Positions 18,450-64,000 of a DNA stretch of 64,000 bases are shown piece by piece. Under the pieces are notes generated by a model that did no database searches, was not told where the DNA came from, and saw only the letters and a list, made by a program, of their open reading frames with translations. How positions within the stretch are numbered: position 1 is the stretch's first letter; every line of letters starts with the position of its first letter. A program made the translations under genes and the position numbers. The DNA is from Psammoneis japonica. Its lineage: Eukaryota. The stretch spans positions 248,001 through 312,000 of the forward strand of contig QPGO01000052.1 in assembly GCA_008632985.1 (NCBI GenBank). The letters are read 5' to 3'.

Positions 18450-19820
18450 TTTGAAGGAAGTTGACACCCCATCATTGCCCTGTGCCAAATGGATGCCTCT
18501 CTCTCTCTGGACATTGATTGCCCTGCTGGCATCCCCCTTCTGCAAAGAAACAATGACCTGCACCATGCCAAGGACATTGTTGCACTGGAATTTTGCAGCT
18601 TGTCAGCTGAGCCACACCAGTCTTGCTGACCCCCAAACTTGCTGCATGGATTGCAAACACACTGCTCTGTGCCAGTTGCCATGTTGTCCTGGTGCAAAAG
18701 CTGAAAAGTGACCACAGCAAGTCCCACCTTCATGGTGAGTTGCAAACATGATTTTGACATGTCACCAACAGTTGTCAGTGTCACTTTCACTTCAACATTG
18801 TCTGTCTGTGCTCCAAAAACTGCATCACACCTGGGTGCTCCAACACAATCACTCCAAACACATGAGCTCTCAATTGGTTGGCCTTGTGTGAACAAACCAA
18901 AGGAGGAGGATGACAGTTGGAAACCATGTCACCTTGCACCATGTCAACTGCTTCATCAACATCCATGGCTCACTTCATCTGACTCCACCTGCAAATGATC
19001 ATTGTCATCATTGAGCAAAGGACAGTCCTTTTTTGCATGCCCAACCTTGTTGCATTTCCAGCACTTGATCTGCTTTTTCTCATTTTGCACAAAGCTTGTG
19101 CCCTCAGGTTTCTTGTTGGCCCCACATGTGTCCAACACCTGCAGCACCTCCTCTTCTTGGCCAAATTGGGACAATTGTCAATCTCCAGTGCAAAAACTGC
19201 TGGTGCAAGTCCTTCAAGATGTGCTGACATTCCTTTTGCACCTTCCATCCATGAGCAGCACTGCTGACAACTTGTTCCTTTCTTTCTTCCAGGTGGCATC
19301 AGCATCCTTGCTGAACCCATCTTTTTTCTTGGCAATTCTTTCAGGACAACCCTTCTGCAGCACCACCCTTCTGCTGTCTCAACAATCCTCATCTGCTGAT
19401 TGCAGCAATTTTGAAGCACCTCTCCTTTGTTCCAAGGAACAAGTGCCAGCTGCTTCCAAGCTTCAACAGCCTGAACATGCAAGCACACTCTTTTGTTTGC
19501 ACTGAACAAGATCAACTTGAGAATTTCCAAACTGGTGCCATCACGCCCAACTCATTTGTGACACTTGCAAACTCCGTCACTCCTTCAACCTTGTGATTGA
19601 TGGCCTTCATGCACTGTCCCACAACACAATCAGTGAGCACCCACATGGAAATGCGCACAGAAATCTGTGATGCTCCTGAAGCATTTGTTGAGGGACATCC
19701 ACAATCCAATCGGCATTTTTGCCTCAAATTTTGCAGCATCACTTGCTGCCAGCACCATCTGACATTCATTGACATGATTGTGACACCCACATGTGCAGCA
19801 CCCAACCTCCTCTTGTTCCA
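18450..19820 (-). mobile_element. Copia-like retrotransposon remnant (gag zinc knuckle plus RT-like fragment)
   Basis: IKCWKCNKVGHAKKDCP CCHC knuckle near 19020-19070; segment 18610-18830 is homologous to 29890-30080. Confidence 0.6.
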
Positions 19821-21369
19821 CAAGGAGAAAGAGCAATGTGTTTGCAGCAGTTGGGGTCTAAAGTGCTGTGAGATCCAAGAGAGCTTTCGTGCTCAAGCCA
19901 AAGCAGGCAAAAATGAACCTTGTGCTGGTTGATGCATGCATCTGCAACTTGGAGGCAATTTGGAAGAAAGCAGAGCAATGGAGAGATGTGGCACTGGCGA
20001 ACCTGGGAATGTCTTGATGATGCAATTGTCAAATTTGGGTCAGGCTCCTGTTGCCAAACATCATTGGACCATCAAGCAACTGTGGTCTTTTGATGGTGGC
20101 AAGAAACCCTCTGCACCACTGCCCTTGGCAAAAATGACAGCTCTGATGAAGGCAGTTGACCTTCAACTCTTTATGAAGAAGGGACTCTTCATGAAAGAGA
20201 GTTCCAACAAGCAACACTTTCACTGTCTCAGTGTCCCAATGAAATCATTGTTGACAGGAAAGACAAGGATGTCACCATGCAGTGAGCGCAAAGATGCACT
20301 TGACATGCACAGGACATTTGCAAAGCTCCAAAAAGGAGAAGCATTGCACAACAAAGAGCGTGAGCCTCCTGAATCAATGGAGTCAGATGTGATTGAAGAG
20401 AGAGAGCTCAGGATGCACAGCAGAAGCTGTCACTCCTCAAACAAAGCAACAGGATGAGTGTGCACGGGAAGTGCAAAGCTGAAGCATCTGATGCTGGCAT
20501 GGCTGAGCCTTTGTGTGATGACCATGATGTTGAAGACTTTGCTGCAGATTTTCTTGACTCAAACTCTGCTTCTCATTGTCAAGAACTTGCATCACCCAAA
20601 TGGCACACTGACAATCCAACAGCATGCAAAGATGTGTTTGGCTTTCACACTTTGGAGGAGATGAAACACAGCATCTTCTGTTTCTTTGTGATGCACCAAT
20701 TCTTGTGTTTCTGACATCCTTTTTGATGGAGATGACAGAAAACTAAAGTGCAATCCAACCAATCTGACACAACTCAAACAGCGGCTGATTGCAAAGCACT
20801 TCATGCAGCGTTGCCCAGTGCACAAGATTGCTGGGTTTGCTTTTGGCATGTCATGACATTCGTCAAAGAGATGCATTGAAAAATTGGTGGGCCAAGCATG
20901 GAGAATTTCTTTTGATTCTCTCCTTGAGCCACATGATTGCTTTGACAAGGAAGTGCCAGACAAGTTCACCAAAGTGCTGCTTGACTTGGTGGTTTTTCTT
21001 TTTGATGGAAAAAACACTCCCACAGAAACAAAACACAAAGATGATGCTGCATGTTGCACACAAGCCAGCTCCAAAATGCACTGTTTGGCACTGCAGTTTA
21101 TGAACTTTGTCACAGCATGTGCACTCTCAAATGAGCACACTTGGGTGTGCAGGGCTGGAGCAGATGAGAACAAATTTGTGTTGTTGAGTGGTGGGTGCAG
21201 AGAAGAGAAAGCACCAACAGAACAGTGGAAAGACTGTGTCGCGCATCATGCATTTCCGGCACCGCAGTGTGCTGAAACATTGGACAGCACTCAATGATTT
21301 GGAAGCAGTCAGAGATTTGCTTGATGCTTTGGTTGAATCAATTGACAGAATGGAGTCAGATGGCAAAAC

Positions 21370-21736
21370 TGCACTGTGCTCGAAGAACGAGTGTAAACGA
21401 AAGTAGAATAGTGTACGAAAAGTGGAAATTATGAGATTGGATTTTACTCTGTGATTTTTGGTTTCTCCGAATGAGTTCTCAATGGCCTAAAGCTTCTGTG
21501 CTGCTTCTACAGACAAAAGGCCTTTCGGAGAATATAATCGTGACAACAGATAGTCCGAATACGATTGCTTTTGACACATAAGATGTCAGCATCGTCTATC
21601 GATCGCATTTGCGATTTTCGACTTCCGATCAACTCTGTGTGATCGTTCTGTCCTTCGCACGCATCCACGACTGTGGCACGATTGACATGTAAATAACACA
21701 TAATCACACATATGCACACAACAGTCGCATGCTGCA
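21370..21736 (-). repeat. 3' LTR of the gypsy element (TA-converted copy)
   Basis: Ungapped alignment to 25637-26003 with 14 substitutions. Confidence 0.95.
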
Positions 21737-24700
21737 TTCGCCTCCCTAATTGCACATTAGAGTCATTTGTTAAGTGGATTATTCGACGGATGTTGACAGT
21801 GTCAACAATGTCTCCACGTTCACTGCATTGTGCCATCAGTGATGACTGTTGTCGTTTTGTGTGGGCCATGTGGGGCCGTTCCAATTTCTGAATGTCTCAT
21901 GAGAGTGACATCGTTTGTTTCTCACTTTGTGTGTGTGCATGTGTGGTGTTACGTCGAGTGTTCTCGTTGACGTTCTTTGTTGACATGAACACAAGGACCA
22001 ATTGTCCTGCAGTGTTTTTCATGATGTCGATTGTACCTGGCATTGTGCCCAGTGCTTGATGTGCGCTCTTTTAATTGTTGTGGCGTTCACTTTGCTTGTG
22101 GAGTTCATGCAGTTCTGGCTGGCTAACTTCACATGTGCCACATTGCTCTGCTGCACTTCCACGTGTCGTAAGCAATTGACGATGGTCAAGGACATTTTCT
22201 AACCATTTCGTCTTGACAATCCTGGGATGGTCATGGACTCCTTTGTGGATTTCTTCATTGCTTCAACCATCTTTCCTTTGGATTTTGATCGTCATTTGGA
22301 CGTTTCTTTTTTGACATGCCGGTGACATTTCGTCATTCCGAAGGCACTGCTTTTGTGCACTGTTCGGATGAATGTCCATTTTTGTGTTTTGTTTCTGAAT
22401 CTTTGGCACATCTCGTGTGACGTCATTTGTGTCTTGCCTTGCACATCGTACATTGCAATCGTGCGGGTGCTGTGAGATTGTCTTTTGCCAATGTGAAGCA
22501 GGCACGTGTGATGTGCACCAATCTGTCACTGATTTTTTCTTTAACCGTCCCCAAACAAGGCGATTTTTTCCTTATGACATGAGCATTTTTGATCTCGCTC
22601 GCCTCCACGAAAAGTGTTCGTATGACATGTCGCGCCCGACAATTTGGAGGAAATGTCTTTGTCCCGTTTTGTTCAGTGTCGAGAACTTTGCAATTTAACG
22701 GAAAGACATTGTCGCAGGATTTTGGTGGGACCTTTTCAGCCAACTCTTCTGTGCTGAGGTTTTCCACAGGTTCTATTTTTTTTATGGCAAGTCGGCTGAT
22801 CGCTCTTGCGACGACGTTCGCCTTGCCCTCGATGCATTTTATTTCGGGACTGGAATTCTGCATTCTAAGTCGTCAACGCATGACTCTGTCCGTTGTGTGT
22901 TGTGAACCGTGTGTGTGACAATCTGTTGGCCAAACAGTGTGTTCCGGGAATTGTTGAGTGTTTCCACTGTGGACAGAAGTTCTTTTTCCGTTGTGACTTG
23001 AACATTGCAATGCCATGTTTGACAATGACATGGTTTTTGATGTGATGCGCTCCACATTTTCGGAGACTTTTCGTTCTGTACTTGTCCTTTTGCCGTTTGA
23101 CCTTTGTTGAGGTGGATTTGGCTAGAAATGTACAGGAGATCATTGAGACTGCATGTCTTTGTGGCAGCAACATGTGTGGACAAGCTGTCGCAATTTTCTT
23201 TGCGTTTTGCTCAATGTTGCGATTGCCAGAATCGCCTCCATTTTCTTTGTAATTGGATGCACACCGTTACGTGTGGAAGTCTTGATAATTTTTTTCAAGT
23301 TAAGCAGTGAAGGACTTTTGTTTGTCAACCTTCAAAGCGACTGTTCTGGTCGTGTGAACGCCGTTTCAAGTTTTTCTTGTGCAGGTGACATTTTGAAGTT
23401 ATTTTCTGTCAGGTGTAAATGTTCATTCTTAGTCGTTCTGACAACTCCAAACCTGCCATGAGTTCACTCATGCGTTGTATGAAAATACATGGGGCTCCAT
23501 GGATTCTTGTCGGAAGTCTGCAGCACTCATTTTCCCCCACGGCATCATTCTGATGTGAGCACGACGTGTGCTTTTTGATTTTATATCGTGGTGTTCCATG
23601 ATTGAATCGTAATTTCATTTTTAAAACTTCAATCTTTCATAATTGGTTAAATTCCTTTCAAATGAATGCCTCCAAAGACTGTGACAGGAGAAGGTTCTCA
23701 CACGTCGTGGAATCGCGTCAGATTTTTTCACAGCGAGATCCATTGATTCTTTCAATTCATTTGTCCAAGGAACTTTTCAAAAGGATTTCAAACCTCTTAA
23801 GAAGGAGACTGAGTGGTTTATCTTCTTTTGGTTAAGATGTATTGCTGTAGCTGTCACTTGATTAGAATCGACGGCGTGATAATGTGAGTCGAGAACCATC
23901 GGTCTCGTTATTAACTCTATTCACCGCGTAATATTTTTCAATGTGATCGGCATTCAGCTGGAACATTTCTGTATCGAAGAGTGCATCAACATTCTTCATA
24001 GGGTAATTGCTTCATTCCCATTTGATTTCTTCAATTCCGTAGTCTAGTATGATTGCAAAACTGGACATTAAGTCGCGTCCCATGATCATATCATTCGACC
24101 TTGAAGGGTATTTGGTGTTATTGACATATACTGTTTGAATATCAGTAAGTCTTAAATTCGCGTACTGAGAACTGAATTCGGTGTTTACTATCAGTCGTAA
24201 AGAGCTCACCCTTGGTTTCCCAAGTTTTTTGGTGGCGGATATCTTGGTTCTCAACTTTGCACGATTTTGCGTAAAATCATGGGCTGACGATGTTCTTTAT
24301 CGAGAGAACACGTAGAAGCTTATTTTTTGCTTTTCTCAGAGAAGTAGTCATATAGACAGCGAGAATAGGACTCGTATAACATACTGTGATGCTTTTTCTG
24401 GGTTTCCAGACGTCCTGTAACGCGTTATACTCCTTGAGCGGTATAAATTTTTGATCGGACTCGATCGGGTCAATTTTTCTAAATTGATAGTTTTATTCGT
24501 TAAGCGTTTTAGAGTCTTAATTTTCGCTCTTATTTTTACGTTCCTTTATCGAGGAACTCGCTTTAATTGTTTTTGTGAACTGCCTAGTTCATAGTTCAGT
24601 TCAATTCCTCTTTCACAGAGGTATTTCTGCTCTCGTCACGTTCGCGTGCGATTGCCATTTAGAGCGTCGTATTTTTGGGTCTCTTTTAGAGCCACCCTTG

Positions 24701-25636
24701 CACTCTTTCGCTAATTCATTTTCAGAATAGCTTTAATCCGTGATGTAGGTATTCTTTTTTCAAAGATTGGACCTTTTATTCACTTTGGATTGTGGTGGTA
24801 CCATATAGGAGACCATTTTTGGAACCAAAATTGGAACCTTTTTGATTGTGGAATCAACTGCGCTATCAGAGCCCGAATTGATATGTTTTTTTGTCATAGA
24901 CGTCCTTGCCGACCTCTAGACGACTCAAACCTCAATCAGCTCGTAAAGGGTATGATCCAGTAGTTCAATATTTTGGACAGTAGGCTGATGCTGCCATCCT
25001 TGCGGTGCGAGTGATAGCTGATAAATCAGCGCTCGGTTTCCCGCTAGATTCGACTTAGAATCCATCTGAGGGTCGTATAGACTCTCATCGTTGACCTCTT
25101 GGGTCTATCAGAGGCTTTCTTGCTGTTGAGCGGCTCTGGTTTCTTCAGGTCGTCTCGAAAATAATTTCCCTGATTCTGAAGTGCATTTCCTCGGAGGACA
25201 TGAGTTATGAGACGCTTGAGGTACTTTCCAACGATTCCCTCTTGCTCCTTGGACTCGAGGATCATCGATTCGGTCTCAAAAAACTCTCCAATAGTCTCTC
25301 CTTGCATGGTAGACGTATTTCTCGGATCTGATCGACTCGGAACTTGCATTCTCTGCAACCATGACTTGGTGTAGATTTTTTGATAATGCGGTGTACTTGA
25401 GAGCCCTTGATCCTTGGGTGCTTGGAATAGACCGTATTAGAGCGAATCCTCTTGTTTGGTAGACGAAAAACAGCGTTCCATCTTGAGGTACTGCTCGGCT
25501 TGAGCTTCTTCCGCTCGGAAATCGATTCCAGCAGAACTGATGCGATTCGTTCCTGTTTATAGAAGAATTTGCAAAGGCACATTAGTTGAAATTTTCATTT
25601 TCCGTACTTTTTACCTTCTGTGGTGTGTATACACAA

Positions 25637-26003
25637 TGCACTATGCTCGAAGAACGAGTGTAAACGAAAGTAGAATAGTGTACGAAAAGTGGAAATTATG
25701 AGATTAGATTTTACTCTGTGATTTTTGGTTTCTCCGAATGAGTTCTCAATGGCCTAAAGCTTCTGTACTGCTTCTACAGACAAAAGGCCTTTTGGAGAAT
25801 ATAATCGTGACAACAGATAGTCCGAATACGATTGCTTTTGACACATAAGATGTCAGCATCGTCTATCGATCGTATTTGCGATTTTCGACTTCCGATCAAC
25901 TCTGTGTGATCGTTCTGTCCTTCGCACGCATCCACGACTGTGGCACGATTGACATATAAATAATATATAATCATATATATGTATATAACAGTCGCATACT
26001 GCA
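25637..26003 (-). repeat. 5' LTR of the gypsy element (TA-retaining copy)
   Basis: Ungapped alignment to 21370-21736. Confidence 0.95.
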
Positions 26004-26217
26004 AAACAGAAAATGGCACAACCAAACACACTCAAGCTGTTGAACATTCTCAAGAGTCTGGAAATGCCCCTGTCAATCACATGAGTGCAAGCAGCCAAAA
26101 AATTGAATGCTCTGAGAAATCTAAGAACAGCAACAACTCTTTGAGCACTGATTGCGAGTCTGACTGGATGGACATGACCAATGGCTGGAGTGAAAACAGC
26201 ATTGTGACAATGTCCTC

Positions 26218-26790
26218 TGCAGAATCCAGCACCAACAGTGATGGCCAGGAAGTTTCAAAGTGTGACAACATTTTTGTCAAGTGTGATGAATGGCTCATTG
26301 AAAGAGTTGGGACAGTTGTTGAAAAAGGAGAAAGCTCAAAGATGCTGGAGTTGACAAGGTTGCATTGCTTGTCAGTGAAGACCAAGCCTTGTTGAGGTTT
26401 TAAATGAAAAGGCATTGGCTTGCTCACTGCAAAATGATCCAGAGTCATTTCTTCAGCAACTTGAGCCATTTAAGAGACTCTGCAGGCTGTGCAACTCTTG
26501 GCCACTGCAGAATCCACCACCAACAAGGATGGCGTGAAAGTTTCAAAGTGTGATCCTGTTTTTGCCAAGTGCAACAAATGGTGCAATGAAAGAAATGAGG
26601 CTGTTTGAAAAAGGAGAAAAGCTCAAAGATGCCAGAGTTGACAAGGTTGTGTTGCTTGTCCATGAAGACCAAGCCTTGTCTGAGCTTTTAAATGAAAAGG
26701 CATTGGCTTGCTCACTGCAAAATGATCCAGAGTTGTTTCTTCTGCAACTCAAGCCATTTGAGAGACTTCACAGGCTCTGCAACTCAAAGG
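26218..26790. repeat. Tandem duplication of about 288 bp within the DDE pseudogene
   Basis: tgcagaatcca..aagtttcaaagtgtga..gaaaaaggagaaa..ttttaaatgaaaaggcattggcttgctcactgcaaaatgatccagagt occurs twice. Confidence 0.85.
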
Positions 26791-27288
26791 CCATCTCTGG
26801 CAAAACATGGTGAGTGCCCATTTTGAAATGAAAAAGGAGCATTGCTGGGATCTTCTTTGCTGGATGGGAAGCAAACTGACCCCACCAATCTGCAGAATGC
26901 ATGACCCTGAGTTGCCTCCAGAGGTCCACTTGTGCCTGCACAAAATCCTGCCAAACAAAGAAGAGCTCAGCAACAAAGGATCTGAGAAGACAGAGCACTG
27001 TTTTCCACATTTCCATTGAGTGTGCATGCCTCAAGTCTTGCCACCACAAACCATCAAACAACAGCATGACGAGCTTGAACTTGGAGACAAGAAGGATGTT
27101 TGCAGGGCATGGCTTCCAATGATGGTCCCTTTTTCTTGGCTTGTTGCTGTTGATGGTCTCCACAACAATGCCCCACACCATGAAAATCTTTGTGTCATCA
27201 TTCCACACATGTTGAAATGGGGTGCACATGGAAATGAGCCTTGGAGCACCACTCCAATGGCCAGGAGGGGCTGACAGGGGTCTTCCTG

Positions 27289-29196
27289 TCAATTGCTGGG
27301 ATTGAGAATTGTGCTGCGGCTCAAAAAAATTGTCAACATTTGATCTGCAATGGTTGCTTCCCATTTCCTGCTGCTGCACTTTGCCTTCTCTTGCACCATC
27401 ATCAGCTCCATCAAGAGTGGTGCTTTGTTGATTGGAGATGGGGGCATTGTTCTTTCAAAAGCATCTTTGTTGGCACAACACTGCATTTGGTGGAAAATGA
27501 AAAGTGCGCGAGAGTGTGCAAGCACACTTCTCATCTGTTGCAGCATCCACAGCACAAAAAGGGGCATGACAAAAATTGATTTGCATCAGCATCAAAGCCA
27601 ATTGCAGCATGTGGCCTTCTTGTGCCTTCTTTGCTCCCCTGATTGCAGATTTGATGACACTGCTTCTGTCTTCATGGGTGGAATGCAATGAAGTTTGAAC
27701 AGCTGCACAAAATTGCCTTCAACAAACATTTTGCAGATGCAAAGCTCTGTTGCATCAATGAGCAAACCACCACCTTGCAACAGCAGGAAACCTTGTTTGA
27801 GCTCATGTTCATTGCCTTTTTGGTGAAAATTTTCAACCAAGCTTGGCAGCATTGAATCAAGCTCTGACACACAATCACAATGACAACAGCATTTGTTGAT
27901 TGATGTGAAATGTCTCACAGCTGACTCTAATTCTGACTCATCCCCAAAAACAGGGTGTCCAAGTTGAGCAGATGCCCAACACTGCAACACAGTGGTTTGC
28001 ACACACATGGAATGGGAGCCACTTCAAAATTAAGATGTGCGTGCAATGGGAGTTCTTTTTCACAATGACAAAATTGCTCATTCTTTAATGTGTTGTAAAG
28101 AGGAGCCAAAAATTTCTTGCTCAATGGCTCGCCATTCAAAAAGGTGGGCCCTTCAAACTGCTGTGCCAATCAACAGTCTGTGATGGCATCAGGTGGCAAC
28201 TTGAAAGGGTCAAAGCCAACAGCTTTGCCCCACAAAAAAGCAGGAGAATTGCCTGTCTTTTCTTCCAATGGATTCAGTGGAACAAGATTGTGATGTTTGT
28301 CAAGGACCGGGCAGTGCAAAAATGGTGCCGCTGCCTTGTCAAAGTTCTCCACACAGCCTGCTGGGATTGCAGCCTGTCCAAAGGCTTTCTCACCAACTTG
28401 CGCTGCAGTGCCTTCAGACCAATCTGTGCTGGCAAGCCTTGGAAGGATGCTCTTGAAGATTCTTGAAAACCCTTGGTGGCTGCAGTTGTCTGAGCCAAGA
28501 AGATTGGTTGTCGCTGAAAAGCATTTGAAGTCATGCACTGCAATGGGACAATTGGCAGGCAATTGGCCCCTTTTGTGCACTTTCCATGCACCATCAAACC
28601 ACAGATCAACCTTAAAACAAAAACAACCTCAGCCCCCAGAACAACAGTGTCACCATCCTCTCCATCATGACACTGTTGATTCAACCGTCTGCCTCCATTT
28701 TGATGAGTTGTTAGTGCTTGGCCTTGCGTGCAGAGCATTCATGTTGGACTCCATTGCCAATCATCTGTTCTTTGACCAACAATGTTGGGTGAAAGGTCAG
28801 ACCAATCTCTTGCTCTTTGCAGTGATTGGCACTGGTTGACCTCGGCAATCATGTCACCAGCTTTTCTTTTCTTTGTGCAGTCATCCATCCATGCATCTGC
28901 TTTTGCCATCTTGTTGTCCTTGCCACACTCTTCATTGGATGTCTTGCCCCATCAAAAATGTGAAAAAGAGATGCCCCAGCTGAGACAAGCTTGTTGTGCA
29001 TGGATTTGGCTGTTGCCAACAAACTTTTTGGCAGATGCAGTGGCTGTGATGGGAGGCACAATGCACAGTGGCATGTTTTGTGAAGCCTCGCCAATGTGTT
29101 GATCCTGGTTCTTTTTCCACTGGCATCAGCAAATGGTGCAGACTGCAGCTTGTTGACATTGCCAACAGCTTTGACCCATGGGTTGCCAATTCCCAT
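27289..29196 (-). pseudogene. Exo1/XPG (Rad2)-family nuclease pseudogene with C-terminal SWIM-like zinc finger, convergent with the DDE gene
   Basis: MGIGNPW..GKRT.IN...RLHK, HIFDGARHPMK, QLIKMEADG, EDGDTVVLGA and LLGSDN follow the XPG-N, XPG-I and H3TH motif order; a Cys/His cluster near 27510-27570. Confidence 0.78.
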
Positions 29197-29889
29197 TGCC
29201 TGTGCATTGAGGTGTTGTGGAGTGATGTGCAGAAGTGCAGCATCAAGGCATGCAAAAACGAGCTTCAGTTGTGGATGATGTCTCTCAATTTTTTTCATGC
29301 ATCACATCTGCACCCTTGCTGCTGCTCACTGCTTCAAATGCCTTTGCTTTCTGTGTCTTGTGGATTGTGCCCCATTTCATGAGGTGATTGCATTGATTGC
29401 CCAGATTGCCTTGTCTTTCTCCAGTGTGGTTGCACCTGATGGATGTTCCAGCTCCTCTGATTTGCTCTTCTGCCTCACACACCAGTGCCTGCATCTCTGG
29501 CCTGAACACTCGTCCAACATGATGCTCATTTGCTTTCCTCTCATGGCCTCTGTGCATCTGCCATCCTCTGCCCTCTGCCTGTCATCCTGACTTGGCAATG
29601 ATGCCGCACAGTCACTCCTTCAAATCTTTTGTGCTTCCATGCTCATCAGCTGTGTCCTCACCCCGCATCAATGTTTCCCCTGGTCTGACACAACTTTGCC
29701 ACACCTTTTTTCAACAGACCCTTCACAGCTTTGTCACAGCAAGGTCCTCCAGAGACTGTCTGTTCACTTGCTTCATTGAGCCAGTTTGCTTGCCACAATC
29801 TGCTGGCATGAGCTCTGCACCTTTGGATTCTTGATGACTTTCCAGCCAGCCTTTTTAGCTTCAATGTTGATGGAATTTTGTGGCTTGCC

Positions 29890-30080
29890 AACTGATCTGT
29901 GCCAGCCTTGCTGCCCCCCAAACTCACCACCATGGATTGCAAACACTGCTCTGTGCCAATTGCAATGTCATCATGATGGTGAGTTGCAGGTGTGATTCCA
30001 CCACATGTTGCTGACAGCCACTGGCATTGCTTTCACCACTTCAATGTTGTCTGTCTGTGCTCTGAATTGCGTGTCACACC
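29890..30080 (-). repeat. Dispersed repeat homologous to 18610-18830 (probable copia RT fragment)
   Basis: Shared catggattgcaaaca..ctgctctgtgcca..atggtgagttgca..ttgtctgtctgtgctc. Confidence 0.65.
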
Positions 30081-30679
30081 CAGATTTTTCAACACTTCAT
30101 AAAAGTTGCGAATCTTCTTGTGTGCCACCAATGTGGACAACTCAGTTGGAGCTGGGCCTTTTGAAAGAGGCCATTGGCACAACCCCTCCACTGGCCAGCA
30201 GCGCATGACCTGCCTCTGTGCATGCTCCCTTTTGACCTTCCTCTCTTGGAGCAAGAGTGACGGGAGCCCTCTCTGGCCAGACTGCTGGGAAGCAACAGAG
30301 ACAGGCATGCAAAGTGTTTTGCTGTCTGAGTGCATTGAAGCCAGCATGAGAGCCTCTGGGGGATTGGTGGCTGGCTCCTCCTTCCAAAATGATGCGAGGA
30401 GCACAATCCTCTGTGTGTGCTGCTCACTCCAAGAGAGCAACGACACCAGCACTTGTTCCCCAAGCTGAGTGGCTTCGAGCTTCACCCTGTGTGCTTGGCA
30501 ACACTTTGAATCCACTCAGGAAAGTGAGCACGTGTCTTTTCCTTTGGGCTGTTCAATCCCAACTCCCAACTGCTTCAACAAGCAAACTTTATCAGCTTCT
30601 ACATGACTGAAGACAATTTTAACCTCCTCGCATTTTGTGCTTCAGCCACTTTGCGGAACGAATGCGGCACCCATAGCAC

Positions 30680-32115
30680 ATGGCACTTTTGAAACAGTCT
30701 TCAAAGCAAAGAATCGCAAAAGAATCCCCGTTCGAAGCAAAGAATCACAATAGAATCGCCGTAACCGAAACTATGGATCCACCACGACAATGGCCACAAG
30801 AAGTCATCGACGAATACGATGCGGTAAGGACTTTGGGCAAAGGCGGTTTTGCTTCTGTTGTTCTTGCTCGAAAGAAGAACCCGAAAGACGACGAGATCGA
30901 TGGAGTAGTCGCCATCAAGGTATGCATAATGAAACGAATGGAATGCTTACTGGAAAAACCAACTTACGTACAGCTATTCTTGTGGCTTACTGTCATAAGG
31001 TGGTGGCCGCCTCCACAGAAGCGGAAGCTGGGTATGCTCACCGTGAGATACGAATCCTTCAGGAACTCTCGCACCCTCGAATCATGCGCTTGGTCGACTT
31101 CTGGGAGCCCACATCTATACAAAGTGGAAGCGTGGCAGTCATGGCGTTGTCTTATGCCAAAGGACCTACACTGCAGTTTCTGTTGAAATCTGGCGCACCA
31201 ACTGTGGCGTTCGCGCGGGTTGTTCTTTCCCAATTGGTGGATGCAGTTGCATACATGCACTCTCGTGCTACATTGCATCGAGACATCAAGCCGGACAATC
31301 TGATAATTTCGGGAGCATCATCTAAGCAGAGCGAGATCTGGGATGACAGAAAAATTGAACATCATACTGACTTTGCTCGGCTAAGAAAAAAGTGGCATGT
31401 GACTCTGGTTGACTTTGGGTTTGCAAGAGCCTTGTCAAAGGACGAAGTGCAAACTGACAGTGGTTTCCGAAAATCTGTAATTGGCAAACCATCCGCATCA
31501 GCAAAGCTCAGTCACAGCGTACACTCCGATCTGAACGAAGCAATAGATATGAGCGCCCATTCTTCGATTGACTCAAGCGCACGTTCAAAAGTGCTGGATC
31601 GGTCGTATTCGCGTGTGATTGTGAGAAAGATGTCTGCACTTGGAAATCGTGACTATGCTGCGCCAGAAGTAGTCAACGGTGTCAAGAAAGAAAAAGTGGA
31701 GAAGGATGGACACACACTCTCAGCTTTTGTTTCTGACTATGGAATGGTCGCTGACGCGTTCTCTGTAGGAGCGACCATGAGATACACACTCTCGGGTGTT
31801 CCTCCAGATAAAAACATTGCAGACACAATCGCCGCCCAGAACAATCCTTTGTCAAAGGTGGGTCGATGGTTGGGAAAGAAAACTAAGAGAACAAAATCTA
31901 AGGCAATGAAGAGAGAAAAGAAATACCGTTCCATCTCCGAGTTTCCCGGCGAAGTAACGCGCTTGATCCAGGGTTTAATGCATTGGAATCCGAAAGAGAG
32001 AACGACCGTCCGTGTTGCAAGGCTGTATCCATGGATCGATGATGCTTTAGAAGACTCAAATCATTGGACTCGTCAAGAGGTGATCTATCTCGATTGCGCA
32101 TCAGACCAACGTTGA
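30680..32115 (+). CDS. Ser/Thr protein kinase; intron 30920-30999 (start at 30680 or 30773)
   Basis: LGKGGFASV, VAIK|VV, HRDIKPDN, DFG, YAAPE, DAFSVG. Confidence 0.92.
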
Positions 32116-45049: not shown

Positions 45050-46990
45050 GGTTGTGCATCATTGTTGCAGCTCATTTCCACCTCACTCAGCTCTCAGCAT
45101 GGCAAATGGTGGCCCTCTTCCTCTTGAGTTGACCAACAAAGCTGTCAGATCACAGCTGTGGATGTTGATGTGAAAAAAAAGACATTGTTGGCTCACTTCA
45201 CCTCCAGGTTTTGGCAATTGTGCAAGTTGCAGCACATGCTTGTTGCCAAACCTTTCTTTTCAACAGATGAGTTGTTCCTTTTTGCTTTGCTTCATTGCTT
45301 TGTGGCCATGAAAGTGAATCTTTTCTTGGATGATGCAGTCAATTGTGCACCCAAGGCAAGAAACAAAGGACGAGTCACTGTGAGATGGAGCTGGCAAGCA
45401 AATTTTGCTCAACAGGAATCAGACAAAAATGGTGCTCTGGGGGGGGGGTTCATGACCATTGACTGTGACAGAATCCTCACACAACCATGTTTCACAAATT
45501 GCCAGTGGCCACATCAATGACAGTGTGTGGGAAACCACAGCAGCGTCACAAACAAGCATGTTGATTTGGACATGCTTGTGAAATTTCAATGTTGTGACAG
45601 CTCTTGCACATCTCCAACCATGCTCAAAATGCAACTCACTCTTGGCTTGGTGCAGTCCTGTCTTGGCACCAGCAACAAACTCTGACATGTTTGCCTTTGC
45701 CATGCATTCTGCATGCTTCAAATTTCATGTTTGCCATTGCAGCCAAGTCACAAGACAATTCTGCCATGTGACAGACAATGCAGAGTGGTTGGTGTGCATT
45801 CATCATGGCCAACAAATGCTTCAGCATGTTTCTCAAACAGCTGGCCTGCCAAAGTCTTGGTGATCAAATGATGTGGACCACCCACCCACACTCCTCCCAC
45901 AGTCTTTGGATCTTTGGCATGCTCAGTCACTCTTGTTGTGAGCAATCTCAAATGAATGATTCTTGCTGTCACCCCATGCTTTGCCCTCAGCTTCAAACAC
46001 AATCCTTGATTTGGAGTCACCAGCATCATGGTGCACTGAACAGATTCCATGTTTTGCCACTCATGAACACAGATCCTCCTGCAGCAAGATGCAATTGGTG
46101 CCGTTCCTTCCAGCAACTCAAAGTCATCTTCAAAACTCCAGCTGACAGCTGGCAGAATCAATTTTTGCCCTTTTGTTCTCTTGGTCAATGTCAATTTTGC
46201 ATCCCAAATTTATTTGAGTTCTTCTGTGTTGTCACAATCAAACAAATTCTTCATCTGCTTCATTGTTTGCTTCTTGAACACAGTGCTTTGGTCCACAAAT
46301 GAAGCAGTCATCAACCCATGTTGTTAACTGTGTGGCTGACCCATCAAAAACCACTTGAATTGCAAACAGGGACTGGCGTTGCTCTTTTTATCTTTCGCTT
46401 TTATGGAAGCTTTGTTGATTTCCCACTGGAGTGCAATGGCAGCTTGCTTCAGCCCATGTGTTGTTTGCAATGAAGATGGCACAACATCTCCTGAACGGAG
46501 TCTTTCAAATCCTTGTGACACTTCCATGTGTGCAGTTGTTGTTCATTCTCTAAAATTGGGCCATTGAAAATGCTCCACATGCATCCAACAACTGGGCCCA
46601 GTGCACATCAGTGCCAACAATGCTGCCCATGCAGTGACGTCATTTGCAGCTGGCACAATTTGTTGAGCTCCTTGCAGTGCTCTCCCTCCACTTGTGTTTT
46701 TGAACAATCTCCACAAGCATTTGTGTGAGCCCAAAATTCTCAATTTGCCTTCCATTTTATCACCCAAGTTGAGCTTGGAATTCTTGCATCCTCCGGAATG
46801 TCCTTGTGATTGCTTGGCTCCCAGATGCTGTGTGCGCTGCTGCAAACTTGTGACGCACCCTCTTCTCCAGCTGGTGCTTCACAGCACTCCCAGGCAGCGT
46901 GGAACGTTGGCTGTCTTCACAGCTTCAACATCATGTTTCATGACTTTTAATTCTGAAGTGTTCTTGAATCCACCGCCCAGTCCAGCTGCA
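45050..46990 (-). mobile_element. Second copia remnant (RT/RNaseH)
   Basis: MEVSQGFE..DVV..LQTTHGLKQAA, ASPCLQFKW and WVDDCF (about 46301-46318). Confidence 0.8.
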
Positions 46991-47269
46991 CAGCTCCAAC
47001 CAATGGCTGATCAGGCAATTCTGGCGCAAAAAAGGGCAGGTCCCGCCCCCATCCAGGCGAAGCCTGCATGGACACGCACTGTGCACTTGAACACCTGTGT
47101 CGTCGCGGCGCGCCAAAAATTTTTGCCGCGGCGGTCGACGGTCGCGCGGCACCGCCGCATCTCCTTGCTCTGCAAGCAGCAAGCAGTGACAGGTGACAGC
47201 GTGGCGGGTGTTCTCGTTGTTGTGCAGTGCTGTCTTTGTTGTGTCTACTCCCAGTTGTGTGTGTGTGCG

Positions 47270-48669
47270 ATGCCTCCAAAGAAGAAGCAGAACAGATCCC
47301 AAGCTTCCATTGACAAGCGGAACACAACAAAGCGGGAGCAGCGAAGGTTGGCAAACGAAGAAAAGGAACGAAAGGCCCTCATGGCTGAAGCGCGCACGAA
47401 GAAGAACACGGAGCGGATGAGGAAGAAACGCGCAGAAGAGAAAGCGAACGAGGGAAAGCACTCCAATGCTGGCGAGATCCCAGTGCCAGCCTCCGGTGCT
47501 GTCATGGAACCCAGTGCCGCTGCTGCTGTCGTGCCCGCTGCCGGAATGGCGGTCGTGCCCGCTGCCGGAACGGCGGTCGTGCCCGCTGATGCTGCTGTTG
47601 AACTGCCGACCGAAAACATGATTGCGGCCATTGCACCCACTCTTCCTGTGAACCATCAAACTGCCATTGCTTTGGTGGCTCAGCAGAACGAGTTTGACCG
47701 CGCAATTTACCAAGACGAAGCAGCCAGCATCAAGGACGTCGCGGAATCAGTCGCGGAGGCAGTCGCGAGTAAAGTCGTGAAAGAAGCGTTTGCTGAGATG
47801 AGGCAGAGCAAGGCTGATCTCAAGTCGTCGACTGAAAATCGTTCCAAGGAGATCATTGCGCTACTTACGCTGGCCAAATCGGCGCCGACTCCTCTCCGTC
47901 CGGCGGAGAACATTGAGGAGATTCCTCCAACTCCGGCTCCCACGGCGGTCGCCACGAATGAAAATCGTCTGAAAGACGATGAAGCGTTCATGACGCCACC
48001 CTCGCAAGGAAATGCCTCACCTGGTGGACGATGCGGAGAAAGAGGAACAAGAGGCAGTGGAAACTCCGAGGAGCAAGTAAATGAAAAGGCACATCAAACA
48101 CATGGCACACACTTTCTTTTCATCATGCAACTGACACATGTGCTTCGTGTCATTCCGACATCACAGAATCTTTTCTCTCTCGCGTTTCGGGTGCCGTCTC
48201 TCATGTTTTTACTCCTAGAAAGGAGGAGACTGATGCTCAAGGGTCTGAAAATTCTTCGGACGGTAGCAAGGAATCGGTTGATGTCCACGATTCTACCAGG
48301 GACTCCGACACAGCGGGTGACGATTTTGCCAACGATTCCGAGGTTTCTGTGGTCGAGCAAGATTTTGCCGAGGGCGCTGACTCCGAGAATGAAACTTCTG
48401 TCGAAGGTGAAGAGGCCTCTGTTGGCGAGGAGGGGTTCCTCATGGACAATTCTGATGTCAACAAATCCGACGGCTCTGATTCGGAGGATGATGAGGATGC
48501 CGACGATGGCATTGGTGTCAACAATTCCGGCGACGCCGATTCGGAGTCTTCGTCCAGTGGCACCGATTCGACGGATGGCCATTCTGTCGACAGCGTGCCG
48601 ATGACCTCCCCGGTCTGCAACAGGTTCAATCTTCGTCCTCGGCGTGCCGCCAAGAACTGCATCTCCTGA
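47270..48669 (+). pseudogene. Intron-containing low-complexity/coiled-coil protein pseudogene (frameshift near 48010, intron 48073-48166), paralog of 63449-64000
   Basis: MPPKKKQ start, VVPAAG repeats, PTLPVNHQTAIA; splicing joins ETPR|KSFLS to the acidic ORF that ends at 48669. Confidence 0.65.
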
Positions 48670-52660: not shown

Positions 52661-55357
52661 ACATGTCAAACAGCCCTCATCTGCTTTGACATGATTGCAA
52701 CTTTGTGCGCCCACCACCGCATGTGCTCCCCACAAGAATGACACTCACACAAATCCCAGAGCACTTGGTCAGAATTTTGGCATTTTTTGGGCAAGTGCAC
52801 AAAACATGTGCGCAGCCAACGGCATTTTGAGGCCTTTTTCTGACCATCTTGGCTGGTGTGAAGATCCAAGGCTGGCCCTGTCTACCCCCCCCCAGTCAAT
52901 TGTTTTGGATTGTGCCCACCCTTCTTGTCCAATGGAGTCTGTGACAGAGCTGCAAAGCAAGCACTCTTGCACACTCACAATCGCAGCAACTCTGAGCTCC
53001 CCTCTTGAGCCCACAAGGACACCACACACAAAGCAAAACACGAAGTGGCCAAACGGAAAGCAAGGACACATGAGGCAACACTCAGATTGATTTTCAGCTC
53101 TTTGCCCAAGAACAACAAGGCCAGAGCTGTCAAGAATGATGCCAAAGCAGGAGCATGGCTGTCGCGCACAACCCTTTGATGCTGAGCTGCACAGAGCTCT
53201 TGTGCAAACAGCTCTGCAGTGTTTTTGTTTGTGGTGCAGCAAGGCCTTGCCTGATCTCCTTGAGCACTGCAGTGGATGTGGGCACAAGCTCTTTGCAAAC
53301 CATGCCTTTCAATGTGGGGAGGGCATGGCTGGGTTGTTGGGCGGCATGACAAAGTGAGCGGCAACCCAAGTGGCCCAGTTGGAGAGGCTTGCAGGCTGTC
53401 CTGTGCGAATGACAAACCTGCCATTGAGAACCCTGCTGTTGGTCATGTCATCTTGGCAAGCCCAAGCAACTTGGGCAATCCATCAAGTGACAAAAGTTCC
53501 AAAGTGCCCAAGGATGGCAACTGTGGAGATGTTCCAGCATGCAGACTCTGGGGCAGAAGGGCAGACATGGTCATGGTTGTGGATGTCTGAGCTCCAGGCA
53601 TGGGTGCAGGCAAGATTGTGCCCACCCAAGGCACTGGGGCAAGCTCCAGCAGACCATGAACAAGATGAAAAGCACAAGCAATGAGAGAAAAAGTGCAAGC
53701 ACCTCAATGAGAGAAAAAGTGCAAGCACCAAGCACCTCGCGCCCCGCCTTGAGCAACGTTGCCACTTTTCTCCTGCCCTTTGCAGCACCAGGATGCCCGG
53801 CAGAGAGAGGCCAGAGAGGTGCTCTGAACAATTGCTTCAAGGATGCTTGACAAGCAACAAAAGCTGTGCTTGGAGGTGTGTGGCCACGCTGATGCAAGAA
53901 TGAGCACCGCACAATGGCAAGGGCAGCCCTGCAGCATTGCCGCTGCCCAGTGGGATCGTGCACTCCCTCATCTCAGAGCTGATGCTGGTTTGTTCCTTTG
54001 GAGCCACCAAAGGACCTTGCTTGTGCTGAGCTCCACCTGCAAAAAAATGATGCTGACCCGCTGTCCTCAGACACCATTGACAACAAGCTCCTGCAATGGC
54101 CAAAACTGCTGTGCGCCAGCATGGCGGCTGCTGTGGTGTGCCAAAGTCATCTGCTCTTGAGTGCCGCATGAACAGATGACAAAAAATGCACACAGAACCA
54201 CCCCTCACTTGTGTGGCTGAAGTTTTGCCCATTTTGAGAAGCACTTTGCAACAACTTTGTTCGAAGCATGGCATGGAAATGGTTTTTGCTCAGAGCCACT
54301 TGTGTTTCCCAGGGGGTTTCAAATCAAGTGTTTGCACCAGACATCTGATGCATGAGAAATTTTCAATGTTTGCTGGCACAGACCATGCAGATTGCATGCC
54401 AGAGATGGTCCAATGCCCACGCTGTCATGCTGAACGCCATTTTTGCAATCTGTCAAACAAGCTTGTTCACATTTTGTGTCAGCAAGAATTGTGGATTTGT
54501 GGTTGTCCAAAGTGTGCCAAAAAATTGATTGTGCAATGATTCAAGGCAGGTTGGCGCTGTTTCAATTGTCACAGGTGCTTTCACCAATTTTCCTGCTTCT
54601 TTTTTGTTTTCACAAATCTTTGTCCATTTCAGAAAAGTCAAGGGCATGGAGCATTTTTGTGGTGATCTAAGTGCAATCACGTTGCTGTGGGCAGGAGCTG
54701 CAATCCTTGCCAGCGTGCGCTGGGAATGAGTGCATGCAACCGTGTCAGCTTGTGCAGGAGACAGGTCAGCAGGTCAGCACTGTCTCTTGTGGGCTTCTGC
54801 TGAACAATGGGGAAAAAGGGGCCAAGACAGGAGATTGCAGAAAAGGTCAACCCGCTTGACCGACACTTCAACATGTTTGTGCTGCACAGCTTGCACTGGC
54901 TGCTCATCTCATTTTGTTCCCAGTTCTTGAGCTGACCAACATCAGAGTCAGCATTTTGACTTCATTGTCATGCGTCACCCACTGTGTCTGCTCAACGATG
55001 CAGCTGGAGAGTCTTCTCCTTTCTGCCATCAGATGCAGCTGCTGCTGAGCAAGAAACATCTCCTCCTCAACCGCGCAAAGAAATGCTTCAGCTTTGTGAA
55101 CCAGCTGCAATTGTGGGTGCAGCAGCAGAGGAAAGAAACTTGGATTCAGCCAATCGGAGCTTTGCGATGAAAATTTGAGCTTCGCACACAAAAACACGCA
55201 ATTGTCTCCAAATTTGCAGTGAGCAGTCTCACAGTGCACCGGACGCGCACGCAACGCTCCAAAAAATTTGCTGGGGGAGCTCTGAAGAGACACGGATTTT
55301 TGCTTTCACTGCACGCAATGATCGCAACATCGCAGCCGTGATGCAACACAACACCGC

Positions 55358-57655
55358 ATGCAACGCGCATCGAGTCAATTGTGCCTTGACAGCATGGAGC
55401 CGGTGACAGTGTCTTCATTGAAAGATGATCCAAGGAGGTGGGGAGAAAATGATGTGTGCGTTTGCAGCTGGGGTGATGCACGCCGTGAGATTCAGAAACA
55501 ATTTTGTGCTCTTGCCGTTGCTGGAGATTGTGAACCTCACGCTGGTTGGTGCAAGTGACTGCAGCTTTTGGGAGACTCAGAGAAACAGTTGAAATGGAGA
55601 GGTGCTGTGCTGTTGAACCTTGGCACATCTGAAGATTTGGTTGCCAACATGGAATCGGTCCCGGTCGCGAGACAGCATTGGACGGCCAGACAGTTGGAGT
55701 TTTTTGACAAAGGCAAGAAAGCATTCACGCCCCTCCCTGCAACAGAAATGAAGGCACTTGCTGTCACCTTTGACCAGCAGTTTGGCATTGCAAAGAAAGG
55801 AAAGAAACACTGTTTTCATTGCCCCAACGTGTCAAAGGAATCACTTCTTGCCGAGACAGCAAGGTCGCCGCGCGATTGCCACAAGGAAGCACGTGATGAG
55901 CAAGTGGCATTTGCAAAGCTTGGCAATTGTCATCAGGCTTTCAAGGAGCGCACACTTTCTGATTTCATCAATGAAAATGAAGGCTCCAACAAGGAAAATG
56001 ACAAACCAGCACTGGCAACACCAAATGCATCATTGCAGGGAAAGGATTTTGCAGTGTCAAATGAAGCTCAGGCCAAGGTGAAGTGCCTGAAGGGAAGCAA
56101 GCGGACAGCAAGCTGCAGGAAGCGCAAAGCCAGCAATCCTCCTCCTCCTTCTGAACCTTCATTTGTTGCTGATGAGGTGGAAGATTTCTTGACAAATTTT
56201 CTTGACAGCAACTCGGCGTGTTGGCACCAGCTGACGTCAAGAGAATGGCGTGCCAACAATCCCGAAGCAGCCAAGGACTTGTTTGGATTTCAGTCTCTTG
56301 ATGAGGCAAAGCGGTGCATGTCTGCATTCTTTGCTGATGTGCCTGTGCATGTTCCAACAATCAAGTTTGTTGCCAAAGAGAAGAAGCTCATGTACGACCC
56401 GCCGGATCCCACTGCGTTTGAACAGGTGCTAATTGTGAAATGCATTGTGCGCCACTGTCCAGTCGGAAAGACAACGGGACGGGTTTTTGGGGTGGTTCCG
56501 ACTGCAGCGTTGAAGCATCTGAACAAGTGGGCCCCATGTTGGGGCAAGCATGGCGAGTTTCTTTCTATCTTGCCGACACCTCCCGACCATTTTGACAAGG
56601 AGCTGCCGGATGAATTTGTTGAGCAGAATCTTGACAAAACTGCTGTGTTGCTGGATGGCAAGGACACGCCAACAGACACCATGCGGAAGGATGATGCAGC
56701 ACGTTGCAAACAAAACAGCAACAAGATGGGCTGCTCCGCATTTCATTTTGTGAATTTTGCATCAGCGCGCACATTGTCGCATGAGCACACAAGGGCGCAT
56801 GGGGCTTGAGTTGATGAGAAACGTCTTGTGGAGGTGATCGGTTCATGCCAAAAGAAGAAAGCTCCCATTCATGAGTGGAAAGACCATGCCAAAGAAAACA
56901 AGGTTCAAAAAGAGCTCAGGCACTGGATGGTGCGGGATGACTTGGTGGTGGGGAAGGAGCTGGAGGAAGCAGTGGTGGCGACAGATTCCCACAAGGCTCA
57001 GGAGACGGATGATGCAAACAACAGATGGGCCAGTTCTAGAGTTGTTGAGTTTTCAGATTTTGACTTTGGGCCCAAGAGTGATGACAGCAGCAGTGAGAGT
57101 GACCAGAGTGGCCCCAGCAACACCGACTGCAATTCGGACTCGGAAAGCATCGCAACGGCCGCCTCCTCTGCTGCAGATGATCTCAATCCGAAAGATTGTC
57201 AACACATTGTGGATCACATTGACAAGTGGTTCAATGAGCGGCTGGAAATTGTTTGCATGGATGGAAAGCTGTGCGAAGCTGGCTTGGACAAGGTCGCGCC
57301 AATGCTGAGCAAGAACTGCAACCAAATGAAGGCCATGAGCAAGAAGGCGCTGCATTTGTTGCCCCAGAACTCTCCGGAGAAATTGCTGCAGCAACTTGAG
57401 CTGTTTGAGAGACTGCACAAGTTGCATGACCAAAACACAATTAAAAGGTGCATCCTGAGCGCACACTTGGAAATGACGAAAGAGCTCCAATGGGATTTGT
57501 CATGCTGGCTTGGCAGCGAGTTGAAACCAGGAGGTCGCGTTTTGGACAACAATGGCGAGGCTCCCAGGGATGCATTTTTGCGCCTGTGCAAGATGCCACC
57601 TGATGAAGATGGTCTTGGAGACAAGGGGTTTGAGAAAACAGATGTTTGTTTTGGC
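55358..57655 (+). pseudogene. PIF/Harbinger/ISL2EU-like DDE transposase pseudogene, copy 2 (3' truncated)
   Basis: Possible THAP-like N-terminus (CVCSW..KWR..ARQHWT), HTH-like region, VLLDGKDTPT and GLGDKGFEKT; in-frame stops. Confidence 0.75.
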
Positions 57656-57858
57656 TGAAGAGCGGTCAATGAGCTCTTTGGCGGATGTGTTGGATCCGAC
57701 ATCACACACTGTGCCGCAACATCCTTGTGACAGTTCTTGTGCAGCCAAACTGAAATGTTGACCCCAAGTCTCTTTCCTTGGGCGTCACTGAAGGGAATGG
57801 AGGGTTGAGCATTGACAGGGCCAAGCGCCTTGAGCCACAGACCTCCGATGCCCATCAT
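57655..57858 (-). pseudogene. Exo1/XPG N-terminal fragment, copy 2
   Basis: MGIGGLWLKAL..GKRLGVNISVWLHK matches the XPG-N consensus MGI.GL..G..AVD...WLH. Confidence 0.78.
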
Positions 57859-63448: not shown

Positions 63449-64000
63449 ATGTCAGCTTCGGGTGCTGTCGTAGAACCAAATGCCGGTGCTGCTGTCGTGC
63501 CAGCTGCCGGAACGGTAGTCGAGCCCGCTGACGCTGCTGTTGCACCATCACCGGCCGAAAACATGTTTGCGGCCATTGTGCCCACTCTGCCGGTGAACCA
63601 TCAAACTGCCATTGCTTGGTTGGCTAAGCAGAACCAACTTGATTTCGAAATTTACCAAACCGAGCTAGCCCGCATCAAGGACCAAGCAAAGGACCAAGCA
63701 AAGGACCTCGCAAAAGAAGCGTTTGCTGAGATGAGGCAGAGCAAGGCTGATCTCAGTCGTCGACTGAAAATCGCACCAAGGAGATCATTGCGCTTCTTAC
63801 ATCCTCGAAAGGAGAAGAGGAGACGGTGCCTCACCTGGCGGACGATACGGAGGAAGAGGCACAAGAGGCAATGGAAACTCCGAGGAGTAAGTAAATGAAA
63901 AGGCACATCAAATACATGGCATATACTTCTTTTCATCATGTAACTCACATATGTATATCGTGTGTCATTCCTACATCACAGAATCTTTTCTCTCTCGCGT
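63449..64000 (+). pseudogene. Paralog of the 47270-48669 gene (apparent frameshift near 63754; intron about 63887-63981); continues beyond window
   Basis: Colinear nucleotide similarity that includes the intron; GTAAGT donor retained. Confidence 0.6.

Follow-up and report, generated by a model that had tools for sequence, protein, structure and literature searches.

We find that a 64-kb stretch of the Psammoneis japonica genome (contig QPGO01000052.1, positions 248,001 to 312,000; hereafter the window) probably harbors two relic copies of a dead cut-and-paste transposon. The element is approximately 4.7-5 kb long, is bounded by terminal inverted repeats (TIRs) and carries two convergent genes, one for a DDE transposase and the other for an EXO1-like nuclease. 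Copy 1 occupies 19828-29196 and copy 2 occupies 55283-57932, all coordinates being positions within the window. Both copies are dead: copy 1 is split by a long terminal repeat (LTR) retrotransposon, copy 2 is missing approximately 2 kb, and both are hypermutated. An earlier note on this DNA, made from the letters alone, had proposed a Harbinger- or ISL2EU-like transposon that carries a Rad2-family nuclease. We confirm that both genes are real and lie where described below, although they can be recognized only through intact relatives.

Genes and ends of the two copies

Searched directly, the reading frames of the window give no indication of either gene. Pfam searches detected neither DDE_Tnp_4 nor XPG domains in 111 open reading frames (ORFs) of at least 55 residues at 19-30 kb (E ≤ 0.01), in 93 ORFs of at least 75 residues at 50-63.5 kb, or in 11 chosen window ORFs (E ≤ 10). 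Comparison of both raw nuclease N-terminal pieces with the PDB by phmmer returned no nuclease, and a word-indexed search with the 115-residue nuclease N terminus produced no match among 115 candidates. The failure of raw ORFs in Pfam is due to decay of the genes, as searches through their intact relatives show. According to the earlier note, a lack of profile support for the two domains would have spoken against its reading; at face value this is what the raw ORFs return, but homology is evident once intact relatives are used.

To recover relatives of the transposase, we queried with a read-through of copy 2 (55559-57655) in which one TGA was read as X. This query matched four proteins at E ≤ 0.01 (best E 3.1e-98), and a profile built from three intact catalytic regions retrieved 14 proteins at E ≤ 1, none weaker than E 2.4e-20. 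The family is rare and very divergent, and its proteins are about 860-880 residues long. One of the matched clusters includes a 694-residue transcript from the diatom Ditylum brightwellii, the closest named relative. Family members have the motifs DGKD, SSKMH, GDKGF and RYxxEV in common. The presumed catalytic residues of relative P0002 are D469, D764 and E813; an insert of ~295 residues separates the first Asp motif (D1, DGKD) from the second (D2, GDKGF), and the Glu follows D2 by ~49 residues, within RYxxEV.

Copy 1 contains the transposase gene in two parts on the forward strand. The 5' part (19828-21250) aligns by tblastn with residues 47-545 of P0002 (19828-21234) and residues 2-108 of P0003. 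It encompasses the N-terminal region, a helix-turn-helix (HTH)-like stretch, the sequence FLFDGKN with the first catalytic Asp (20995-21015) and SSKMH (21067-21081), and it is decayed by stops and frameshifts. The start coordinate given in the earlier note, 19828, is exactly where transposase homology begins. The 3' part (26391-27305) aligns with residues 214-414 of P0003 and residues 703-844 of P0002 (26789-27223). Here the P0003 alignment reaches its last residue at 27302, and the C terminus (...GLPVNCWD*) is closed by a stop codon at 27303-27305. This part of the gene also shows a 287-bp tandem duplication (26211-26497 and 26499-26785), whose units agree at 84% in bases and at 94% in purine/pyrimidine letters.

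The transposase of copy 2 spans 55331-57655 on the forward strand and matches residues 17-774 of P0002 at 55331-57652 (tblastn, E 3.6e-123), with one in-frame TGA. It retains LLDGKD (56648-56665) and GDKGFE (57617-57634) and is cut off just past D2, which costs it the last ~100 residues and with them the catalytic Glu region. The transposase gene that had been proposed, on the basis of DGK and DKGF motifs, to be DDE_Tnp_4-like is real, and these motifs can be located both in intact relatives and in the window.

The second gene is encoded on the minus strand. As a query (P0009), we used the piece at 28612-29196, read from the ATG at 29196 with four stops read as X. Among 1.84 billion representative proteins, 23 matched at E ≤ 0.001, four of them at E ≤ 1e-10 (best 7e-19). 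XPG_N and/or XPG_I domains are found by Pfam in all 23 of these relatives and YqaJ in none; Pfam scans of window ORFs and relatives detected no Myb/SANT domain. The nuclease of an intact element would be 650-670 residues long, with XPG_N, XPG_I, a GSDY motif that resembles H3TH and, toward its C terminus, the conserved, zinc-knuckle-like pattern CCGC-x7-CxH. For relative P0011 (652 residues), the best match in the PDB is human EXO1 (E 1.6e-11, residues 10-323), followed by Rad2, XPG and FEN1, and it is this order that makes EXO1-like the correct label. In metagenome contigs, a profile of the transposase identified no relatives among 98 pattern matches, and in viral contigs neither this profile nor one of the nuclease identified any.

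The P0009 search, Pfam analysis of its matches and colinear tblastn alignment of P0011 together place the nuclease of copy 1 at 27292-29196 (minus strand). Residues 1-601 of P0011 run from 29196 to 27501 and residue 641 falls at 27388; the alignment draws on three frames, with a summed E of about 1.5e-46, and crosses six in-frame stops. With at least six in-frame stops and at least two frameshifts, this gene is dead. The motifs behind the XPG-N, XPG-I and H3TH calls of the earlier note nevertheless lie at the expected places, namely MGIGNPW at 29176-29196, IFDGARHPMK at 28930-28959, GEDGD at 28649-28663 and LLGSD at 28488-28502; CCGCC is found at 27540-27554. In P0011 the acidic active-site residues are intact (GIDISVW, VFDG, FEAEWQ, TEDGD and GSDY). 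Copy 1 has lost the active site in at least two places, where GIDISVWLHK of the relative has become RINTLARLHK and EAE has become KAK (KAKH*).

The C-terminal half of P0011 (~330 residues) matches no Pfam family, yet is conserved as far as its ...PFSCCGCYDGRGLCSH... motif, which in the window reads CPFLCCGCCNR*EVCLH. All three sequences that reach this region (P0011, P0029 and the window) conserve CCGC..C.H. The earlier description of this tail as SWIM-like is borne out as regards the Cys/His pattern CCGC-x7-CxH, but not by the Pfam SWIM profile (PF04434), which has no match at E ≤ 10 in P0011 or P0047. ESM-Atlas provides a weak lead for the SWIM-like tail (score 0.77; 12-15% of the members of the clusters carry SWIM). 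Overall, the XPG domains of the relatives and the best PDB match to EXO1 agree with the earlier assignment of the second gene to the Rad2 family, and these comparisons support its identification as a predicted EXO1-like nuclease of the Rad2/XPG family with a conserved CCGC...CxH tail.

In copy 1, the genes are arranged tail to tail, with the nuclease frame open to 27292 and the transposase stop codon ending at 27305. Because the differences introduced by hypermutation are all transitions, we compared the window with itself after reducing each base to purine or pyrimidine. In this alphabet the two transposase copies are ~80% identical (19824-21241 and 26353-26994 versus 55440-57642). The nuclease starts of the two copies match weakly (score 52), and nothing beyond them exceeds the null. 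The similarity between the copies is confined to the element, and their flanks show no likeness above null.

Copy 2 has inverted ends of ~90 bp. The left TIR (55283-55374, plus strand) aligns to 57932-57844, and the right TIR (57844-57932, minus strand) holds the nuclease start codon at 57853-57855. Of 93 alignment columns, the ends agree in 50 and differ by a transition in 31, for a score of 75; 29 random pairs of hypermutated DNA, used as the null, scored 31-49. What is left of the nuclease in this copy is a remnant of approximately the first 63 codons (57665-57855, minus strand; MGIGGLW...), detected by tblastn with residues 1-80 of P0011. The remnant abuts the truncated end of the transposase, and past ~57665 its frame runs antisense to GDKGFEKTDV. 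Relative to copy 1, copy 2 has lost ~2 kb internally and is a deletion derivative. The recurrence that had been reported at 55.4-57.9 kb holds for transposase residues 17-774 and for the nuclease start, although only ~63 nuclease codons remain. A TIR-bounded pair at two sites with different flanks upholds the claim that the two genes behave as a unit.

Hypermutation, later events and neighboring repeats

Host genes alternate in the window with blocks that lack a Pfam-recognizable ORF. The former include ordinary genes for an SNF2 helicase, TMEM151, PAP2, SNase and an amino-acid kinase at 0.4-16.4 kb, and for a protein kinase and a GNAT protein at 30.7-35.2 kb. In the blocks at 16.4-21.3, 26.0-30.1, 36-47 and 51-63 kb, TpA has an observed/expected ratio of 0.00-0.13, and TG and CA have roughly doubled. 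For CpG this ratio lies at 0.00-0.22 in the first three of these blocks and at 0.20-0.86 in the one at 51-63 kb. Host-gene stretches have TpA ratios of 0.46-0.98 and CpG ratios of 0.70-1.24. The stretch singled out in the earlier note, 19828-29196, lies in two of the TpA-depleted blocks. As assembled, nearly every TpA and most CpG dinucleotides in all of the repeat blocks have been converted to TpG or CpA.

The two copies of the element allow this conversion to be followed position by position. At pyrimidine-purine steps aligned between the two copies, we counted 79 TG/TG, 64 CA/CA, 52 TG versus CA, 46 CG versus TG or CA and five TA versus TG. The 52 TG-versus-CA pairs are as predicted if ancestral TA or CG was resolved independently into either product. 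Strand-coordinated hypermutation, expected to leave runs of TG or of CA, was considered and rejected: runs tests returned z values from -1.7 to +1.4 in all nine regions, and the choice between TG and CA gives no sign of strand-processive events. For the encoded proteins, the conversion has removed almost all Tyr codons together with several catalytic residues. Tyr accounts for two of 1975 aligned residues on the window side and 62 of 1985 in the relatives, and 26 of 57 aligned Tyr positions are occupied by His or Cys in the window.

The LTR retrotransposon inside the transposase gene of copy 1 (21370-26003, 4.6 kb) was inserted later and does not belong to the two-gene element. Its LTRs (21370-21736 and 25637-26003) are 367 bp long with TG..CA ends, AAAC is present on both flanks, and its ORFs of at least 55 residues yielded no Pfam domain. 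Over 367 bp the two LTRs share 96.2% of their bases and, in purine/pyrimidine letters, match at 100%. Thirteen of the 14 differences oppose TA in the right LTR to TG or CA in the left, and the remaining one opposes TG (right) to CG (left). The left 2.3 kb of the retrotransposon is TpA-poor with normal CpG, and its right half is untouched. The stretches at 21.4-23.7 and 47-52 kb are likewise TpA-poor, with CpG of about 0.9-1.0, and TpA loss can thus precede CpG loss.

In the literature searched, we found no description of a process that turns TpA and CpG into TpG and CpA. An artifact of assembly or base calling may instead lie behind the loss of these dinucleotides. One public DNA run contains a fraction of 0.76 of sampled 31-letter words, and no RNA run was listed as containing them; the DNA run is possibly the source of the assembly and so does not constitute independent support.

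Several further features of the window touch on this process or on the surroundings of copy 1. The protein kinase gene (30790-32115) is intact and its start borders a hypermutated block; at 30001-32000, TpA is 0.29-0.42 and CpG 0.54-0.92, and these intermediate values may mean that the mutation process has spread into a host gene. Direct repeats at 18586-18846 and 29871-30095 flank copy 1 (80% identical in bases, 93% in purine/pyrimidine letters), and a match to zf-CCHC, a Gag-type zinc knuckle, lies just inside the left one (18959-19177, minus strand, E 2.5e-5). Copy 1 may itself reside within an older LTR-type element.

A 645-residue open frame at 46667-48601 (plus strand) belongs to no Pfam family; TpA is 0.10-0.11 up to 48 kb and 0.37 beyond, and CpG is normal. 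Part of this frame (47521-48185) is repeated at 63463-64000, with 87-96% identity in purine/pyrimidine letters. Long frames arise easily where TAA and TAG are gone, and this one may therefore not be a gene. Direct repeat pairs also occur within hypermutated blocks at 51183-51507/52290-52653, 38789-39054/44698-44978 and 17086-17270/17369-17554, and are seen mainly in purine/pyrimidine letters, at 83-97% identity.

Placement of the transposase and competing explanations

The transposase appears to be a distant IS5/Harbinger-like enzyme, and its membership in the PHIS superfamily is likely rather than demonstrated. For profile comparison by hhalign, the template consisted of eight DDE_Tnp_4 ORFs, free of interruptions, that we took from a pair of bacterial genomes. 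The half of the transposase running from the HTH through D1 to SSKMH matched this template with P 0.001, and the half from D2 to the Glu with P 0.0011. Both halves align colinearly and keep D1, a YSGK-type motif and D2 in register, at probabilities of only about 21%. As controls we used the template in reverse, one that is unrelated and, for each half, 20 with shuffled columns; every control gave P ≥ 0.055. Among the ESM-Atlas neighbors listed for the catalytic region, 30 of 30 belong to DDE_Tnp_4 clusters (score 0.92-0.93, 175-178 shared features). HTH_Tnp_4, the only Pfam family matched by more than one of 16 family members, is matched by four of them, all below threshold (best E 5.9e-4; 19.8 bits against a cut-off of 27). 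These matches are at the expected position, and the region aligns with the HTH part of the bacterial template.

A number of results weigh against the reading we prefer, that of a TIR-bounded two-gene transposon with an IS5/Harbinger-like transposase. None of the 16 family members matches DDE_Tnp_4 at the Pfam threshold (best E 0.082, in one member), a precomputed Pfam domain is present on none of the 14 proteins matched by the transposase profile, and the 295-residue spacing between the Asp motifs is unusual. An AlphaFold2 model of the P0003 catalytic region, computed from a 16-row alignment, was unusable and leaves the fold unconfirmed (mean predicted local distance difference test score [pLDDT] 44.9, predicted template modeling score [pTM] 0.26). 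The search for TIRs that the earlier note had recommended succeeded at copy 2 but not at copy 1, where the inverted ends score 41, inside the null. At neither copy is a target-site duplication readable, as TpA has been erased in these blocks and the exact termini are uncertain. The adjacency of the two genes is known from this window only. In metagenome contigs, the nuclease profile detected two loci of 1.8 kb that contain the nuclease gene alone, and none of the source contigs of transposase and nuclease relatives coincide by recorded size, a weak comparison given that the lists are incomplete. Finally, the role in 5'-strand processing discussed below is one that we infer for the nuclease.

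The alternative that fares best accepts the two-gene transposon but assigns its transposase to a separate, undescribed DDE lineage outside PHIS that is only remotely IS5-like. The lack of Pfam support in the 16 members and 14 profile matches would fit such a lineage, as would the long insert and the low hhalign probabilities obtained despite P values near 0.001. The same may be said of the lack of a Myb/SANT or YqaJ partner and of a THAP domain, the last of which was detected neither at E ≤ 1 in P0002-P0005 nor at E ≤ 5 in the 16 members. On the other hand, two independent halves of the protein are colinear with DDE_Tnp_4 and have their motifs in register, which is not true of the controls; HTH_Tnp_4 is at its expected position in four of 16 members; and the ESM-Atlas neighbors are uniformly DDE_Tnp_4. 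We regard placement outside PHIS as unlikely, while still giving it some weight. The PHIS affiliation put forward in the earlier note is favored by the hhalign and ESM-Atlas results and goes unsupported at Pfam thresholds. Its further statement that the nuclease had replaced YqaJ, implying descent from ISL2EU, is not established, as the THAP domain was not found and the target-site duplication is unreadable.

One could also argue for a host gene: an EXO1 paralogue, or a host fragment that was captured, would simply lie beside a transposase gene, and the second copy would have arisen by segmental duplication. This explanation accommodates the EXO1-like character of the nuclease, the detection of two copies only, the lack of demonstrable ends at copy 1 and the restriction of the known pairing to this window. 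It conflicts, however, with the flanks of the copies, which share nothing above null, and with the right TIR of copy 2, which spans the nuclease start codon. Moreover, the nuclease bears the hypermutation seen in the repeats, unlike the host genes of the window, in which TpA and CpG are normal. Relatives of the nuclease also make up a group of their own and have in common a C-terminal domain that EXO1 lacks. We therefore consider a host origin of this kind quite improbable. The notion that the domain calls amount to motif-spotting on mutated repeat DNA, with no real gene pair, might draw on the failure of raw ORFs to match anything in Pfam or the PDB, but it is refuted by matches to intact proteins at E 3e-98, 7e-19 and, summed, 1.5e-46, with near full-length colinear coverage, and deserves virtually no credence.

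Relation to known elements and a possible role for the nuclease

Two-gene transposons of related design provide a context for the element described here. In the part of Han et al. 2015 (PMC4482050) available to us, ISL2EU is presented as a cut-and-paste element of ~4.8 kb that encodes an IS5-like DDE transposase and a YqaJ 5'-3' nuclease. It is characterized there by a THAP domain, an AT target-site duplication and GG termini, and that part of the article reports it from animals only; the TIR range given is 6-259 bp. PIF/Harbinger elements are described in the same text as having two ORFs, TIRs, a Myb/SANT protein as the second ORF and a TWA target-site duplication.

Measured against this account, the Psammoneis element resembles ISL2EU in its length, in its two genes, in the combination of a putative IS5-like DDE transposase bearing an HTH-like stretch with a 5'-3' nuclease partner, and in TIRs that fall within the 6-259-bp range. 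It differs in that the second gene encodes a Rad2/XPG (EXO1-like) enzyme and not the lambda-exonuclease-like YqaJ. Other differences from ISL2EU as depicted in that source are that THAP was not found here, that DDE_Tnp_4 stays below the Pfam threshold and that the host is not an animal. With PIF/Harbinger, as outlined there, the element shares two ORFs, TIRs, an HTH combined with a DDE domain and the motif order DG(T/K), (Y)S.K.H, DKG(Y/F), R..E. Unlike PIF/Harbinger, its partner protein is a nuclease rather than a Myb/SANT DNA-binding protein, and its transposase is about twice as long owing to the 295-residue insert.

Similar comparisons can be made for the nuclease. P0011 exhibits the features of the catalytic domain of human EXO1 (PDB 3QEA/3QE9/5UZV), including FDG, EA(D/E)xQ, TED(S/G)D, G(C/S)DY and a helix ending in ...PLN. 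Identity to human EXO1 is low, however, and P0011 adds a C-terminal domain of ~330 residues with GNEHN and CCGC...CSH. The nuclease is also distinguished from human EXO1 by being encoded inside a mobile element and, for the window copy, by its lost active-site residues. A survey of the literature, the scope of which did not extend to Repbase or to the supplementary tables of PMC4482050, uncovered no description of a transposase paired with an EXO1-like nuclease, in line with the earlier suggestion that this domain pair is possibly undescribed.

We speculate that the transposase would bind the ~90-bp inverted ends and carry out 3'-OH cuts and strand transfer, and that the nuclease would process the 5' strand. 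In Tn7, the DDE transposase TnsB works with a separate nuclease, TnsA, which has a restriction-enzyme-like fold and cuts the 5' strand. The resemblance to TnsA/TnsB is a functional analogy without any relation in sequence. By this analogy, the nuclease of the Psammoneis element may cleave the non-transferred strand or a flap; another possibility is that it resects the gap left in the donor so that homologous repair can follow. Such a step would correspond to the job presumed for the unrelated YqaJ 5'-3' exonuclease in ISL2EU.

Provided that the two genes form a real unit, a requirement for 5'-strand processing would be the most economical reading, because two unrelated enzymes, YqaJ in ISL2EU and the EXO1-like protein here, hold the same slot; we lean modestly toward this view. 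A bolder proposal, which we advance only tentatively and consider rather doubtful, is that the element represents an undescribed ancient lineage related to IS5/Harbinger in which a self-encoded EXO1-like flap nuclease is obligatory as a second catalytic subunit, with YqaJ as its non-orthologous replacement. If true, such a lineage would parallel, in eukaryotes, the way in which TnsA and TnsB share the work.

The window also illustrates the destruction of such elements in this genome by a conversion of TpA and CpG to TpG or CpA that erases Tyr codons and active sites. The pairing of genes preserved in these relics bears on the role of second genes in Harbinger-type transposons and offers a concrete, testable hypothesis, that of 5'-strand processing. 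Since intact relatives exist, including a diatom transcript, biochemical study of these proteins is feasible.

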